From Prochlorococcus sp. scB243_495L20 (GTDB lineage: Bacteria > Cyanobacteriota > Cyanobacteriia > PCC-6307 > Cyanobiaceae), in contig JFLX01000113.1 in the NCBI GenBank assembly GCA_000634215.1, positions 899 to 64,898 of the forward strand: a DNA stretch of 64,000 nucleotides, written 5' to 3'. The notes beneath the pieces were generated by a model. That model made no database searches. It saw nothing but the letters and a program-made list of their open reading frames with translations, and was not told where the DNA came from. Each line of letters begins with the position of its first letter. Position 1 is the first letter of the stretch. Positions 6,378 to 52,726 of this stretch are shown here, in pieces. The translations under genes were made by a program, and so were the position numbers.

Positions 6378-7487
6378 ATGACGGATATCTTAGTACTAAT
6401 TTTATTTGTATTGTCTGGAGCTGCTTCAGGGTGGCTTGGTGTTGATTTATTGCCAGTAGACGTACTCAAACAGGTATCCAATGTAGAAGGTTTTAGAATT
6501 GTTTTAGCAATAATTGGTTTTTTTGTAGGATTAGCAGCTGGTTTTGTATTCCTTCAACTTAGAAAGACTTTTCTTGATCAAATAAGAACAATGCCTACGG
6601 ACTTACTAATAAGTAGGTCAGTTGGATTAATTTTAGGATTACTTGTTGCGAATCTCCTACTAGCTCCAATACTATTAATTCCCTTCCCTAGAGAGGTTTT
6701 TTTCGCAAAACCATTAGCAGCCATATTAAGCAACATTTTCTTTGGTGTTCTTGGTTATAAGTTAGCAGATACCCATGGAAGGACATTATTAAGATTATTC
6801 AATCCAAATAACGCTGATGCATATCTAGTCAATGAAGGAATTCTCCCTGCTGCAAGTCCAAAAATTCTAGATACTAGCGTAATTATTGATGGAAGAATCA
6901 ATGGTCTTTTAAGTTGCGGCTTATTGGAAGGGCAATTAATTGTTGCTCAAAGTGTAATTGATGAATTACAAACTTTAGCTGACTCAAGCAGTAATGAAAA
7001 AAGGTCGAAAGGCAGAAGAGGTCTCAAGTTATTAAAAGAATTAAGAGATTTATATGGGAGAAGACTTGTAATAAACCCTACAAAGTATGAAGGTAATGGG
7101 GTAGATGAAAAACTCCTTAAAATTACTGAGGATATGACAGGAACTTTAATTACTGCTGATTATAATCTTTCTCAGATCGCTGAAGTTAAGGAATTAAAAG
7201 TTATGAATTTGAGTGATTTGGTTATTGCTTTAAGGCCAGAAGTACAACCAGGAGAGTCACTGAATATAAAAATCGTAAGAGAAGGCAAAGAAAAAATGCA
7301 AGGTATTGGATATTTAGATGACGGCACAATGGTTGTTATTGATGAGGCAAAGAATTTTGTTGGAAGCAGATTAGACATTGTTATCACAGGTGCATTACAA
7401 ACTCCTACTGGAAGAATGGTCTTTGGAAAACTAATAAATAATCCTGAGTCAAACAAATCTTTTAAATCACCAGCGACACAGGGCTAA
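6378..7487 (+). CDS. Membrane-anchored PIN/TRAM domain protein (YacL-like)
   Basis: N-terminal TM helices, PIN motif ILDTSVIIDGR, LITADYNL, TRAM segment GIGYLDDGTMVV. Confidence 0.9.
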   Translation: MTDILVLILFVLSGAASGWLGVDLLPVDVLKQVSNVEGFRIVLAIIGFFVGLAAGFVFLQLRKTFLDQIRTMPTDLLISRSVGLILGLLVANLLLAPILLIPFPREVFFAKPLAAILSNIFFGVLGYKLADTHGRTLLRLFNPNNADAYLVNEGILPAASPKILDTSVIIDGRINGLLSCGLLEGQLIVAQSVIDELQTLADSSSNEKRSKGRRGLKLLKELRDLYGRRLVINPTKYEGNGVDEKLLKITEDMTGTLITADYNLSQIAEVKELKVMNLSDLVIALRPEVQPGESLNIKIVREGKEKMQGIGYLDDGTMVVIDEAKNFVGSRLDIVITGALQTPTGRMVFGKLINNPESNKSFKSPATQG

Positions 7488-7518
7488 ATCTAGCTAGAAT
7501 CAGTTCAATCTTAATTTT

Positions 7519-8190
7519 GTGATACAAATGACTGTATCTGCTCCTTATTACGGCGAAAACACCGTTATGAGGACCCCGCCACCAGATCTCCCCTCTCTTT
7601 TACTTAAAGAGCGAATTGTTTATCTCGGTTTACCATTATTTTCAGATGATGATGCAAAAAGACAATTAGGAATGGATGTTACTGAGCTTATCATTGCTCA
7701 ACTTCTTTATTTAGAGTTTGAGGATCCAGAAAAACCAATCTATTTCTATATCAATTCAACTGGTACAAGCTGGTACACTGGCGACGCAGTAGGTTTTGAA
7801 ACAGAAGCTTTCGCTATCTGCGATACAATAAGCTACATTAAGCCTCCAGTACACACAATATGTATCGGACAAGCAATGGGGACTGCTGCAGTTATTCTTT
7901 CATCTGGCACTAAGGGACAAAGAGCCGCTCTTCCACATGCTTCTATTGTTTTGCATCAACCTATAAGCGGAGCAAGAGGTCAAGCAACCGATATCCAAAT
8001 AAGAGCTGAAGAGGTTTTGAAAAATAAAAAATCAATGCTGGAGATTTTATCTCGTAATACTGGGAAGACCATCGAAGAACTCTCAAAAGACTCTGACAGG
8101 ATGAGTTATCTTAACCCACAAGAAGCCCTAGAATATGGAGTTATTGATAGAATACTCACGAGTCAAAAAGATCTACCAAATAAAATTTAA
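7519..8190 (+). CDS. clpR: Clp protease non-catalytic subunit ClpR (likely start ATG 7528)
   Basis: ClpP fold (LLKERIVYLG, YINSTG). The catalytic Ser motif reads GQAMGTA instead of GxAASMG. Confidence 0.88.
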   Translation: MIQMTVSAPYYGENTVMRTPPPDLPSLLLKERIVYLGLPLFSDDDAKRQLGMDVTELIIAQLLYLEFEDPEKPIYFYINSTGTSWYTGDAVGFETEAFAICDTISYIKPPVHTICIGQAMGTAAVILSSGTKGQRAALPHASIVLHQPISGARGQATDIQIRAEEVLKNKKSMLEILSRNTGKTIEELSKDSDRMSYLNPQEALEYGVIDRILTSQKDLPNKI

Positions 8191-47774: not shown

Positions 47775-48318
47775 TAACAACTTACCCAGTTGGAGGCAAG
47801 ATTTAAAATCTTCTAGAAAAAAAGAGGGCAAATCAACCTCTAATAGATGGATACAGCTTGCAACAGTCAGCGAAGAAAATCAGCCAAGATTAAGAACAGT
47901 CGTTTTTAGAGGATGGCATAAAGATAGTTCAATGATTATTTTTACAGATAGAAGAAGTGAAAAAATTGGGCATTTAAAATCTAACCCTAATGCAGAAATA
48001 TTATGGTTCTTTTTGAAAACCAAATCACAATATAGATTCAAAGGAAAAATACATGAATTAAGTGATAACAAAAATTATTGGGATTTATTATCAGAAAAAT
48101 CAAAATCTTCTTGGTTTTGGGGATCTCCTGGAGAGAAAATAAACCCAGAAGTCCAATCTACTTGTGAAATATTAACCAATCTTCCCAAGTCAGAAAATTT
48201 TGTAGTTCTAAATTTTGAAATCGATTCAGTAGATCTTCTTAAATTAGAACAACCTGTTCATAAACGATATCTTTGGGAAAAGGTTAAGAAATGGGAAAAA
48301 GTTGAAATTAATCCTTAA
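47767..48318 (+). CDS. Pyridoxamine 5'-phosphate oxidase-like FMN-binding protein
   Basis: IQLATV...PRLRTVVFRG...TDRRSEKI...QYRFKG. Confidence 0.85.
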   Translation: MPDNNLPSWRQDLKSSRKKEGKSTSNRWIQLATVSEENQPRLRTVVFRGWHKDSSMIIFTDRRSEKIGHLKSNPNAEILWFFLKTKSQYRFKGKIHELSDNKNYWDLLSEKSKSSWFWGSPGEKINPEVQSTCEILTNLPKSENFVVLNFEIDSVDLLKLEQPVHKRYLWEKVKKWEKVEINP

Positions 48319-49251: not shown

Positions 49252-50400
49252 TTATTTTTTAGAAAAATTTTCTAAAATTCTCTGATTTATTTTTGGAATA
49301 TTTTCTTTAAATTTAAAAAACCCTCTTTTAGCAAATTTCCAAGCAAATAAATCTTCATCCCTCACAAGATTATAAATTTTTTTATGGTGTAAATTTTTAA
49401 ACTCAGTTATGAAATCATAATTTTCTCCCACTCCAGGATAAATAATGTCTATTTCGTTAGTATTTTTAAAAGTATTTTCTAACGAATAAGGATCAATCTG
49501 TTCAACATTATCAAATTGCTCTAAAAATTCAGAGACCAAATCTTGTTTAAATTTCAATACAGATTCAGACAATGTAATTTGTCTTAGTTCATTTTTTAAA
49601 AGGATAATAAATACTTTTTTATAGCTTGGAAGTAAATTTTTAAGGGTTGCAAGGTGTAGATCATTTTCAAACATAATCAGATTATCTGATTTAGGATCCA
49701 TATCATTTTTATAAATCTCATCTTCAAATGGTATTTGATTAGATTCTTCAAGAAAAATTTGTTGATTACTTATTTTTTCTACATTAAATCTATTATTTGA
49801 AAACTTTCTGAGGTTTGACGATGAAAAAAGATATTGTTTTCCCTTCGTTTGCAATCCTCCGACCCATCTCCAGCTAAGGAGATTAGATGAAGCATCTCCA
49901 TCAAAAAGATACTTAAAGAAAAACTTTGCTCCCAATTGCCATGGGAGGCCTAAATTAAATATCCAAGTACTCGCAAACCACATTCTTGTATGGTTATGCA
50001 AATAATTGTACTGCTTTAATTCATGTACCCAAGAATTAAAAAAATCTAATTCTGTATTGCCATTAATTGCACTTTCATATAACTCATAATCAAAGTCGAG
50101 ATTGTTTTCTGAAATAAAATTTCTCCAAACTTTAGGTCTATTTTCCATCCACCCTTTCCAGTAAACTCTCCAAAAAATTTCTTCAACAAATTTAGTTGAA
50201 TTTTTGATTTTGTACTTACTTTTAATATCATGGATCAGATCATATTCCGATAATATTCTATGAGTAATGAAAGGCGATAATTTTGAAACTGAACTTTCAT
50301 TATTTGGCCCAAAATCAAAATTTCTTAATTTTGCATAATCATTGATTTTGTATTTCGCAAAATTTTCCCAGGTATTTTGAGCTTTTAATAAAAAAGACAT
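49252..50400 (-). CDS. Photolyase/cryptochrome-family protein with N-terminal FAD-binding domain (inverted domain order)
   Basis: YAKLRN...SKLSPFIT...EEIFWRVYW...YLHNHTRMWFAS...LFDGDASSN...WRWVGG all lie in the N-terminal half. Confidence 0.85.
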   Translation of the reverse strand: MSFLLKAQNTWENFAKYKINDYAKLRNFDFGPNNESSVSKLSPFITHRILSEYDLIHDIKSKYKIKNSTKFVEEIFWRVYWKGWMENRPKVWRNFISENNLDFDYELYESAINGNTELDFFNSWVHELKQYNYLHNHTRMWFASTWIFNLGLPWQLGAKFFFKYLFDGDASSNLLSWRWVGGLQTKGKQYLFSSSNLRKFSNNRFNVEKISNQQIFLEESNQIPFEDEIYKNDMDPKSDNLIMFENDLHLATLKNLLPSYKKVFIILLKNELRQITLSESVLKFKQDLVSEFLEQFDNVEQIDPYSLENTFKNTNEIDIIYPGVGENYDFITEFKNLHHKKIYNLVRDEDLFAWKFAKRGFFKFKENIPKINQRILENFSKK

Positions 50401-50677
50401 TTTCTTATAACTTTAAAAAATTTTTTTTTGTATTGATAGAAATTTCAAAAATTTGCCTTTAAATTGATCCTTAAAATTTACTATTTAACTTTTAAGAAAA
50501 TATGTTTGATTGAAGTATTTAATTTAAACGTCTCATAAGTACATTTTATACTCTTAAATCGCTCACTGCGTAGGAGGATATTGAGTGGTCAATTACTTTT
50601 TAGATCAAATTTTAATTTTCAAATCTTTATTTAAATGATTTTTTCTAAAAGATTTTTAAATATTTATCAAAATTATT

Positions 50678-51427
50678 ATGAATAATTTATTAGTGAGAGA
50701 TGTTAAGTATCTAGATGAACAATACAGAATTGGTGAAGGCATAATTACGGATGATGCATTTAAGCAACTTGAAAAGCTCTTTATACCTGTTGATCGAGAG
50801 CCTGACTACTTTAATCAAAAAAATAATAAACTTTTGCCAAAATTAGCCAAAGAAAACTATAAAGAATTTTTGGAAAGTTTATTAACAAAAACAAGATTAA
50901 GCATTCAACCAAAAATTGATGGCTGTGCTATTGCAATTAGATATCTAGATGGCAAGTTTAATAAAGCTATTACAAAAAAAGGATTTGATGTCTCAAGCAA
51001 AATTAAACAAATTAAAAATGTCCCCGATTGTATTCCTATCAAACGAGATTTTCAAATTAGAGGTGAACTATACGCTACAAACCAAGTTGCCGGCATTTCC
51101 CAAAGAATTACAAGAAAATACCTCAATGATAAGAAAGGGATTGGAGAAAGTCTCCGCTTTTGCTGTTTCCAAATACTTAATGGAAGACTTAATCAATACG
51201 AAACCCTTAACTATCTTAAAAAATGTGGCTTCAGCACCCCTGACAGTTACTTCACAAATCATACAAGCGAAATCCAAATATTTAAAAAAAATTGGTTAGA
51301 GAAAAAAATATTCGCGAAATATCCAACTAATGGGATAGTTGTAAAAATAAATAGTAGGAAATTACAGTTACTTAGAGAGAAAAGTTTATCTCAAAATAAC
51401 GAATGGCAATATGCAATTGAAAAATAA
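50678..51427 (+). CDS. Stand-alone NAD-dependent DNA ligase adenylation (Ia + NTase) domain
   Basis: QPKIDG (motif I), IRGELY (III), FCCFQI (IIIa), TNGIVVK (IV), WQYAIEK (V), then stop; no OB/HhH/BRCT. Confidence 0.8.
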   Translation: MNNLLVRDVKYLDEQYRIGEGIITDDAFKQLEKLFIPVDREPDYFNQKNNKLLPKLAKENYKEFLESLLTKTRLSIQPKIDGCAIAIRYLDGKFNKAITKKGFDVSSKIKQIKNVPDCIPIKRDFQIRGELYATNQVAGISQRITRKYLNDKKGIGESLRFCCFQILNGRLNQYETLNYLKKCGFSTPDSYFTNHTSEIQIFKKNWLEKKIFAKYPTNGIVVKINSRKLQLLREKSLSQNNEWQYAIEK

Positions 51428-51535: not shown

Positions 51536-52465
51536 ATGACTGCCACCATTTCAAGACCTAAAATCTCTAACTGGGAAACATCTAATATTCCAATCCTTAC
51601 AGGCAAAACAGCACTAATTACTGGTGCGAATAGTGGTCTTGGATACTACACTGCAAAGGCCTTAGCAGAAAAAAATGCTCATGTTGTTATAGCTTGTAGA
51701 TCACTTGAAAAAGCTAATCAAACTATCAAAAAACTTAAAGGTCTTAATCCTGAAGGATTATTTACACCTTTAGAATTAGATTTGTCAGATTTGAAAAATA
51801 TTGTTGAAGTTCAGTCCAAAATTCTTGATAATTTTGAAAATTTGGATTTACTAATCAATAATGCTGGCATTATGCATCCGCCTAAAACTCTTAGTGCCCA
51901 AGGATATGAAATACAATTTGCAGTTAATCATCTAGCTCATATGCTTTTGACTCTAAAGCTACTTCCAATTATTGAAAAAAAAGAAGAATCTAGAATAGTG
52001 ACTGTGACTTCAGGAGCACAATTTTTTGGCAAAGTTGGTTGGAAAAATCTGAAAGCCGAGAACTACTACAACAAATGGGAATCTTACTCCAATAGTAAAT
52101 TGGCAAATGTAATGTTTGCTTTGGAACTAAATGAGAACTTAAAGCACAAAAATATACTTTCTTTAGCTGCTCATCCAGGAATTGCAAAAACAAATCTCTT
52201 TACTGCTCAAAAACCTAACCCTGGTCCATTAGAAACATTCTCATTGGAATTATTTAGTCCTATTTTTCAAACTGCTGAGATGGGTGCTTTACCTCAGCTT
52301 TTTGCAGCTACTTCACCAGACGCAAGAGGCGGTGATCATTATGGTCCTAGATTTAATTTCAGAGGTCATCCAAAACTATCCCCTACTTCTCCTTTCGCCA
52401 TGAATAAAAAAGAAAGAAAAAATTTATGGGAAAAAAGCCTCGAAATACTTAATAACTTCTTATAA
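51536..52465 (+). CDS. Short-chain dehydrogenase/reductase (retinol-DH / WWOX-like)
   Basis: TGANSGLG, LINNAGIM, YSNSK (YxxxK), HPG. Confidence 0.92.
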   Translation: MTATISRPKISNWETSNIPILTGKTALITGANSGLGYYTAKALAEKNAHVVIACRSLEKANQTIKKLKGLNPEGLFTPLELDLSDLKNIVEVQSKILDNFENLDLLINNAGIMHPPKTLSAQGYEIQFAVNHLAHMLLTLKLLPIIEKKEESRIVTVTSGAQFFGKVGWKNLKAENYYNKWESYSNSKLANVMFALELNENLKHKNILSLAAHPGIAKTNLFTAQKPNPGPLETFSLELFSPIFQTAEMGALPQLFAATSPDARGGDHYGPRFNFRGHPKLSPTSPFAMNKKERKNLWEKSLEILNNFL

Positions 52466-52726
52466 ATTTTTCATTTTTACTAACTTTAGAAAATACTTCA
52501 AGATATGTAATTCACTCTCTGAGAGTTTCATAAATTCTGTTAAGGCATCATAATTTTTTTCATCAATTTTTTTTGACAATTGAATAAAACTATCATGGTT
52601 TTCATTAACAAAGCGCTCAGCAATCTGAGACGGAGTTAAACCCTGTTCAATTAATTCACCTGGAGCATTTTTCTCCCAATTTTCATAAAACCAAGAGAAC
52701 CAATATTTTGCAGTATTATCTTCCAT
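52460..52726 (-). CDS. 88-aa acidic hypothetical protein, paralog of 63190..63507
   Basis: ATG ORF; aligns without gaps to the 63190..63507 product. Confidence 0.75.
   Translation of the reverse strand: MEDNTAKYWFSWFYENWEKNAPGELIEQGLTPSQIAERFVNENHDSFIQLSKKIDEKNYDALTEFMKLSESELHILKYFLKLVKMKNL

Follow-up and report, generated by a model that had tools for sequence, protein, structure and literature searches.

High-light Prochlorococcus lacks a DNA ligase of the NAD+-dependent type (LigA) in full length, and an ATP-dependent ligase occupies the former ligA locus (bioRxiv 10.1101/2020.05.11.089284). These cyanobacteria are reported as the sole bacteria to have swapped their replicative NAD+ ligase for an ATP-dependent one, and a short NAD-type gene in their genomes is an unexplained leftover. 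One such gene, here called mini-LigA, lies in the 64,000-nucleotide stretch of contig JFLX01000113.1 from Prochlorococcus sp. scB243_495L20, a member of the high-light clade HLII, that we analysed (hereafter, the window). What can a ligase domain stripped of the rest of the ligase be doing in this genome? Sequence comparisons indicate that mini-LigA belongs to a family of short proteins in its own right, found chiefly in uncultured marine phages, and is not a cut-down host ligA, and that its form at the murD locus, which includes the window gene and is hereafter called type 1, has become part of the core of high-light Prochlorococcus.

The open reading frame is intact, from an ATG start to a TAA stop at 51425-51427, and encodes 249 amino acids, exactly as the initial annotation, made from the DNA letters alone, had proposed. 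The protein is composed of a shortened LigA domain Ia and a nucleotidyltransferase (NT) domain. It matches PF01653 (E = 2.6e-18) and, in phmmer searches, solved LigA adenylation domains at about 1e-7. An AlphaFold2 model calculated from 43 homologues reached a mean predicted local distance difference test score (pLDDT) of 84 and a predicted template modelling score (pTM) of 0.82, residues 1-20 being its only poorly defined part, and the top Foldseek matches of this protein are LigA adenylation domains (E = 2.5e-14, template modelling score about 0.7). The assignment to a LigA-type domain is far beyond chance. The coding sequence and its motifs, with protein residues and their Escherichia coli LigA equivalents, are the following:

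50678..51427, + strand: mini-LigA coding sequence, 249 amino acids, stop codon included (open reading frame, profile match and fold model)
50708..50779, + strand: Ia-like segment YLDEQYRIGEGIITDDAFKQLEKL (alignment with E. coli LigA)
50912..50923, + strand: motif I, KIDG, with K79 as the lysine that is adenylylated; in type 1 neither K79 nor G82 varies
50972..50983, + strand: TKKG, the LigA TRGDG loop shortened by a four-residue deletion; K100 replaces R136
51053..51073, + strand: motif III, QIRGELY; E130 corresponds to E. coli E173
51155..51175, + strand: motif IIIa, RFCCFQI, which opens a near-invariant block (residues 161-185)
51323..51352, + strand: motif IV, PTNGIVVKIN; N218 replaces D285 and K223 corresponds to K290
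51404..51427, + strand: motif V remnant WQYAIEK followed by the stop; E248 stands in the K314 column and K249 is the last residue

All these elements (Ia-like segment, KxDG, RGE, motif IIIa, a motif IV with NG, and the terminal WQYAIEK) lie where the initial annotation had seen them, and two of its readings need refinement. The Ia-like segment is present, but it is shortened to about two helices and the first 20 residues fall in the low-confidence part of the model. The protein does end at motif V, one residue past that position, but in the alignment with E. coli LigA and the family it is E248 that stands where LigA has its motif V lysine (K314), and the final K249 is off by one. Downstream of the stop, a spacer of 108 nucleotides precedes a gene of the SDR family. 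No sequence coding for the OB, Zn, HhH or BRCT domains of LigA was detected in the 64-kb window or within about 6 kb of the orthologues, in searches whose positive control worked, and the claim that none follows the gene thus stands.

An exhaustive phmmer search of 1.8 billion representative sequences returned 618 matches, the top 100 or so of which are short proteins or fragments. The full-length proteins among these short ones have about 220-290 amino acids, with identities to the window protein down to 28%, and without exception the short proteins end at motif V or shortly past it; the first full-length LigA (E = 4.8e-13) ranks below the whole set. Because the short proteins outrank every full-length LigA, they are best seen as a separate family, which is ancient and widespread. 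A profile search detected at least 730 protein clusters with this short architecture and the same C-terminal boundary, mostly from marine metagenomes, with members of 247-283 amino acids among the matches listed. A profile of distant members recovered 40 viral loci from IMG/VR, of which 32 encode the short form (240-289 amino acids) on contigs with G+C contents of 30-63%. The sharp C-terminal boundary stressed by the initial annotation is conserved among the 276 family members from which boundary and residue counts were drawn: the 187 Prochlorococcus sequences end 0-4 residues past the motif V column (181 of them at 0-1) and the 32 viral sequences 0-11 residues past it. The window protein falls, in length and in end point, within the range that characterizes phage mini-LigAs (220-290 amino acids, 0-11 residues past the motif V column).

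On 31 of the 32 viral contigs (IMG/VR loci L082-L112 and L114), mini-LigA lies directly behind the gene of a conserved protein of about 250 amino acids, called C0 here, on the same strand and with a median gap of 35 nucleotides (for example, positions 7212-7967 and 8001-8777 of L083). The C0 proteins are strongly basic (isoelectric point 9.8-10.8). They have no match in Pfam and no sequence match in the PDB, their sole label being the PHROG 'minor tail protein' (phrog_1924). Genes around the pair encode VapE-type or Zn-ribbon primase/helicases, SNF2/DEAD helicases, VRR-NUC nucleases and PD-(D/E)XK exonucleases. Pseudomonas phages contain a remote C0 homologue that is flanked by lysis and terminase genes and has no ligase in its vicinity. 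Searches of the window and of the Prochlorococcus loci detected no C0 homologue, and no viral contig was found to carry the Prochlorococcus type 1 form or a close copy of it. Cultured phages were also considered as carriers of the short form and set aside: the best matches listed for the phage collection are 26-30% identical to the short proteins, and those that were examined or annotated correspond to T5-like subunit A or to 'DNA ligase'.

Type 1 is found at a fixed place. The closest relatives of the window protein (94-99% identity) are encoded by 80 species-representative HLII genomes, among them the complete chromosomes of MIT 9314, MIT 9322, MIT 9201 and SB. The HLII locus consists, in order, of genes for PNPOx, DoxX, a photolyase-like FAD_binding_7 protein (opposite strand), mini-LigA, the SDR protein, an open reading frame of 88 codons (opposite strand), murD and pirin; this order was observed at 80 of 80 loci, as far as each contig extends, and is kept around homologues of 57-67% identity from other clades. 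Full-length copies from genomes, single-cell genomes and metagenome assemblies (55-99% identity) have 248-252 amino acids and contain no stop, frameshift or indel, and 54 residues are invariant over 43 diverse sequences. Protein identity between clades is 58-69% for mini-LigA, 55-64% for murD and 56-71% for the photolyase-like gene. Among the HLII copies, the pairwise Nei-Gojobori ratio of nonsynonymous to synonymous divergence (dN/dS), which the initial annotation had named as a check, is 0.31 for mini-LigA versus 0.07-0.25 for six neighbouring genes. The conserved synteny, the murD-like rate and a dN/dS of about 0.3 argue together that type 1 belongs to the core genome of high-light Prochlorococcus, is inherited vertically and is under purifying selection. 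The G+C content of mini-LigA is 0.304, compared with 0.313 for the window, the rest of which contains housekeeping genes (a glycogen debranching-type enzyme, tyrS, pepA, lpxB, bamA, purD, a histidine kinase, kaiC and a SpoIID-like protein).

The mean dS of mini-LigA among the HLII copies (0.064) is the lowest when compared with the six neighbours (0.086-0.30), at similar dN, and it is this lower dS that raises the dN/dS of the gene. The low dS may correspond to a recent sweep, to constraint on synonymous sites or to an artefact of the method in AT-rich codons.

At least three paralogue classes that differ in their genomic behaviour can be distinguished in Prochlorococcus. Type 2 (P0120/P0121-like) shares about 50% identity with type 1, retains the full set of catalytic residues and occurs in variable contexts rich in small open reading frames; of the loci L130-L136 of Prochlorococcus single-cell genomes, four carry it intact and three (L134-L136) in broken form, and in one locus it lies about 4 kb from rsuA. 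Type 1 (L035) and type 2 (L131) occur together in the single-cell genome AG-402-L18. Type 3 (P0132-like), 33-42% identical, belongs to Prochlorococcus whose genomes measure about 1.9 Mb, MIT 1012 and MIT 0916 among them (L137-L153), and is present there as two copies about 3 kb apart (one of 228 amino acids, the other of about 200-210) with conserved neighbours of their own. Its domain Ia is shortened and its motif I is degenerate across the subgroup P0126/P0132/P0138/P0141/P0146, where the variants KIIG, KICG, KIKG, SIYG and QFIG occur.

The residues needed by E. coli LigA were mapped onto the same 276 family members. Following mutational work of the Shuman laboratory, we take Y22, H23, D32, Y35 and D36 of domain Ia to be needed for the binding of nicotinamide mononucleotide (NMN), and K115, D117, G118, E173, R200, R208, D285, K290 and K314 to be required in the transferase domain. 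All 32 viral proteins are intact at Y22, D32, K115, D117, G118, E173, D285 and K314. The haplotypes at D36/R136/R208/D285/K314 differ between groups:

Viral proteins: commonly DRRDK
Type 1 outside HLII: mostly DR(N/E/S)DK
HLII (n = 126): K in 113 at D36, K in 119 at R136, N in 118 at R208, N in 110 and D in 16 at D285, E in 115 at K314

The common HLII haplotype is KKNNE, followed by the terminal K, and corresponds in the lineage of the window to the replacements D36K, R136K, R208N, D285N and K314E; intermediates are found at 73-78% identity. In motif IV, the aspartate is present in 32 of 32 viral proteins and in 57 of 61 sequences from other Prochlorococcus clades, the asparagine in 110 of the 126 HLII sequences. 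The aspartate is ancestral and the change to asparagine, the conservation of which the initial annotation had wanted checked, is specific to HLII and not a feature of the family.

Constraint at these sites was estimated as per-site entropy on 100 thinned type 1 sequences. The positions of D36, D117, R136, R200, R208, D285 and K314 lie between the 59th and the 92nd percentile of variability in type 1, compared with the 12th to 31st in the phage-like set, where R200 reaches the 58th percentile in a part of the alignment that is off by one column. The five HLII replacements fall on sites of relaxed constraint. By contrast, type 1 shows no variation at the positions of Y22, H23 (as R), D32, Y35 (as F), K115, G118 and K290; the Ia residues among them are Y16, R17, D25 and F28 in the window protein, where K29 stands at the position of D36. 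E173 is also kept in the HLII lineage. The block of residues 161-185 (FC.F.ILN..LN.YE....L.KCGF), near-invariant in type 1, has no counterpart among the LigA motifs.

Four cysteines of the core paralogue (C83, C162, C163 and C183, in DGC, FCC and KKCGF) are invariant or nearly so, and those equivalent to C83 and C162 are kept in many phage relatives (PKIDGC and FCAF).

Only two parts of the 277-nucleotide intergenic region upstream of mini-LigA align across distant clades:

50523..50552, + strand: promoter-like element TTTAAA-18-TATACT with the core CATTTTATAC, which is invariant in orthologous intergenic regions, including those of distant clades
50570..50579, + strand: GTAGGAGGAT block, about 20 nucleotides downstream of the promoter-like element, in which TAGGA is conserved across clades

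We also considered a LexA box in the upstream AGTACATTTTATACT and dropped it on visual inspection, the spacing and one half-site departing from the cyanobacterial consensus; this block reads better as a -10 element. No Rfam match to a structured RNA was obtained between positions 48000 and 55000. Marine metatranscriptome assemblies contain 60-67% of the 31-mers of the region, with a depth over mini-LigA that resembles that over murD and the SDR gene. In the diel transcriptome of strain MED4, a truncated NAD-type gene, PMM0659, cycles with S-phase replication genes, rising from about 0.6 to about 2.5 with a peak shared with dnaG, dnaB and ssb (PMC2663038), which shows that a truncated member of the family is regulated with replication in MED4. 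PMM0659 adjoins rsuA (PMM0658), near nrdJ, a position that makes it a probable member of type 2 and an unlikely orthologue of the window gene. Of the ATP-ligase genes of MED4, PMM0729 was undetected and PMM1679 aperiodic (PMC2663038), a pattern that would be unexpected if the ATP-dependent ligase were the replicative enzyme.

Two neighbours of mini-LigA call for separate mention. The divergent photolyase/cryptochrome-like gene (window positions 49252-50400, - strand) encodes 382 amino acids that comprise the FAD_binding_7 part only; in one distant lineage (L123:5736-6847) it is split into two open reading frames (137 and 174 amino acids), next to an intact mini-LigA. The 88-amino acid open reading frame (52460-52726, - strand) overlaps the stop of the SDR gene by six nucleotides; it has no Pfam match on record and is 90-100% conserved in HLII and 58-72% in other clades.

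The combination of drifting residues with a frozen nucleophile and a frozen surface leads us to favour, tentatively and with somewhat less than even confidence, the view that the HLII copy of the window is a domesticated phage-type mini-LigA that would bind a nucleotide and a partner, its ligase chemistry having been lost or strongly altered. The ancestral activity of the family was most probably an NAD+-dependent adenylylation of the motif I lysine followed by the transfer of AMP at DNA ends, and another protein would have supplied DNA binding in trans. In the HLII lineage, five residues that E. coli LigA requires are replaced, with the charge reversed at two cofactor-contacting positions (D36K and K314E) and with R208 and D285 lost. 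The HLII protein would keep the fold, the lysine nucleophile, the residues of the adenine pocket and the surface formed by residues 161-185, which may be the face that binds the partner. Such a protein, probably unable to seal DNA on its own, could serve as a 'pseudo-ligase' with an accessory or regulatory role, plausibly during the replication or repair of DNA; nucleotide binding, dependence on a partner and the cellular role are what we infer here, beyond the observed architecture, family, conservation, synteny and residue drift. Several points weigh against this view. The invariant motif I lysine and Ia residues would also fit an active enzyme with altered cofactor contacts, K249 could partly replace the motif V lysine from its place beside E248, and asparagine is isosteric with aspartate in motif IV and may be tolerated there. 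As to expression, the metatranscriptome contigs extend across intergenic DNA and across genes of either orientation, which leaves room for DNA carry-over, and the MED4 data concern the paralogue beside rsuA instead of the orthologue of the window gene. Finally, the authors who described this class were unable to produce it in soluble form and presumed it to be inactive (bioRxiv 10.1101/2020.05.11.089284).

The chief competing explanation is that the window protein is still the catalytic subunit of a two-part NAD+ ligase, which self-adenylylates and seals nicks with DNA binding provided by a protein encoded elsewhere. T5-like phages do split their NAD+ ligase between adjacent A and B genes, and the solved PR1 heterodimers 9hu3 and 9i5i are among the Foldseek matches; in phage mini-LigAs the core catalytic residues are intact, and the genes lie within replication modules beside that of a basic protein; in type 1 itself the motif I lysine, the equivalents of G118, E173 and K290 and the Ia tyrosine, aspartate and phenylalanine are invariant; and in MED4 it is PMM0659, not the undetected or aperiodic ATP-ligase genes, that peaks with dnaG, dnaB and ssb. 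However, T5 subunit A includes an OB domain that the window protein does not have, neither OB, Zn or HhH coding nor a C0 homologue turned up in the window or near the Prochlorococcus copies, and in HLII five essential positions carry replacements and vary, which makes a working ligase subunit possible but rather unlikely. The initial annotation had leaned instead towards a repurposed NAD+-consuming enzyme, such as an AMPylator, an RNA-end modifier or an anti-phage effector, a role with which the intact frame, the conserved boundary and the invariance of the Ia residues that bind NMN in LigA would agree, as would the distribution of the family over phages and hosts, common for genes of phage-host conflict. 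We consider it improbable: the replacement of the motif IV aspartate is joined by four others at positions needed in E. coli LigA and variable here, which argues against an efficient NAD-consuming enzyme in HLII, the charge is reversed at the cofactor-contacting D36 and K314 positions, and a ligase-type transferase uses NAD+ just once per acceptor. The suggestion of a phage-defence effector fares no better, since the window protein matches no PADLOC-DB family at E <= 0.1 and the gene, with its native base composition, occupies a fixed core locus among housekeeping genes, and not a defence island, without typical defence-system partner genes nearby. A functionless remnant, kept by chance or through an overlapping regulatory element, might be suspected from the dN/dS, the highest among the seven genes compared, from the drifted catalytic positions and from the decay of the related island-borne paralogue in some genomes (L134-L136). 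Yet the full-length copies are free of lesions down to 55% identity, cross-clade conservation equals that of murD, the 54 invariant residues extend over diverse sequences, the promoter-like element upstream is conserved, and mini-LigA is intact in the very lineage in which the neighbouring photolyase-like gene is broken. We therefore judge a remnant very improbable, in agreement with the initial annotation, which had argued against a decaying pseudogene.

The preferred reading, a domesticated protein with altered ligase chemistry, can be set in a broader and more doubtful scenario, in which marine phages would possess a hitherto unrecognised two-gene NAD+ ligase (mini-LigA as the catalytic and C0 as the DNA-binding component), Prochlorococcus would have domesticated the module three times (types 1-3), and the HLII core copy would have become a pseudo-ligase that no longer seals and works alongside the ATP-dependent replicative ligase. 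What was a 'presumably inactive' protein becomes testable, as a slow-evolving core gene with HLII-specific residue loss, related to a large, catalytically intact phage family that is paired with a basic protein. It raises the questions of whether an NAD+ ligase without an OB domain can function together with a partner and of what role a frozen ligase fold plays in a phototroph that is among the most abundant of the ocean.

Among known systems, the window protein resembles LigA (EC 6.5.1.2; E. coli structures PDB 2OWO and 5TT5) in its nucleotidyltransferase fold, in motifs I, III, IIIa and IV and in the Ia pattern Y..D..F. In LigA, domain Ia together with the transferase domain is enough for NAD+-dependent self-adenylylation. 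To bind and seal DNA, the enzyme needs its OB and HhH domains, by which the duplex is clamped; the E. coli LigA-DNA structure is summarised in PMC10504179. The window protein has none of the OB, Zn-finger, HhH and BRCT domains, its Ia segment and TRGDG loop are shortened, it is only 19% identical to E. coli LigA, it carries N218 and E248 in place of D285 and K314 among five replaced essential residues, and it scores far below the LigA equivalog cutoffs (60.1 bits versus 444 and 58.3 versus 369 for TIGR00575 and NF005932 of NCBIfam, respectively). It works like LigA and yet, by domains, score and residues alike, is not a member of it.

The T5-like heterodimeric NAD+ ligase, whose PR1 phage structures are among the Foldseek matches, shares with the favoured picture the distribution of catalytic and DNA-binding parts over separate polypeptides, and its subunit A is 28% identical to the window protein over the whole query in tblastn. 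It is split after the OB domain, into A (Ia, NT and OB; 323 amino acids) and B (Zn, HhH and BRCT; 259 amino acids), encoded by adjacent genes, whereas the window protein ends before the OB domain and has no B-type gene nearby. A split ligase with an adjacent partner was accordingly searched for and rejected: tblastn with eleven LigA C-terminal halves (from E. coli, two metagenomic sequences, the T5 subunits and six viral full-length proteins) found nothing in the window, in the Prochlorococcus loci or in 436 kb of viral loci, and the positive control worked. The phage mini-LigAs (for example, P0144 and P0159) have the same architecture and the same boundary, are 24-32% identical to the window protein and are linked to it by intermediates at 41-51% identity; they differ in keeping the core catalytic residues and in lying behind C0 in a replication module, the Prochlorococcus gene having no C0 neighbour.

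The closest precedent is 'ND-Lig tr', a class of proteins of less than 260 amino acids with Ia and NT domains only, described by Hjerde, Maguren, Rzoska-Smith, Kirby and Williamson, which forms a clade separate from full-length LigA and whose genes were placed in genomic islands without common synteny (bioRxiv 10.1101/2020.05.11.089284). The window gene, with its 249 amino acids, its Ia and NT domains and its high-light (HLII) host, belongs to this class, which has thus been known since the 2020 preprint. It differs in occupying a fixed core locus with identical neighbours in every genome examined; the description of islands without synteny evidently fits the variable types 2 and 3 and not type 1, so that the published picture is corrected to one of at least three classes. 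The phage gene pair and the residue drift are not reported in the preprint. Relative to the literature that we searched, this analysis adds the core synteny and murD-like rate of type 1, the three paralogue classes, the pairing of C0 with mini-LigA in phages and the catalytic drift in HLII.

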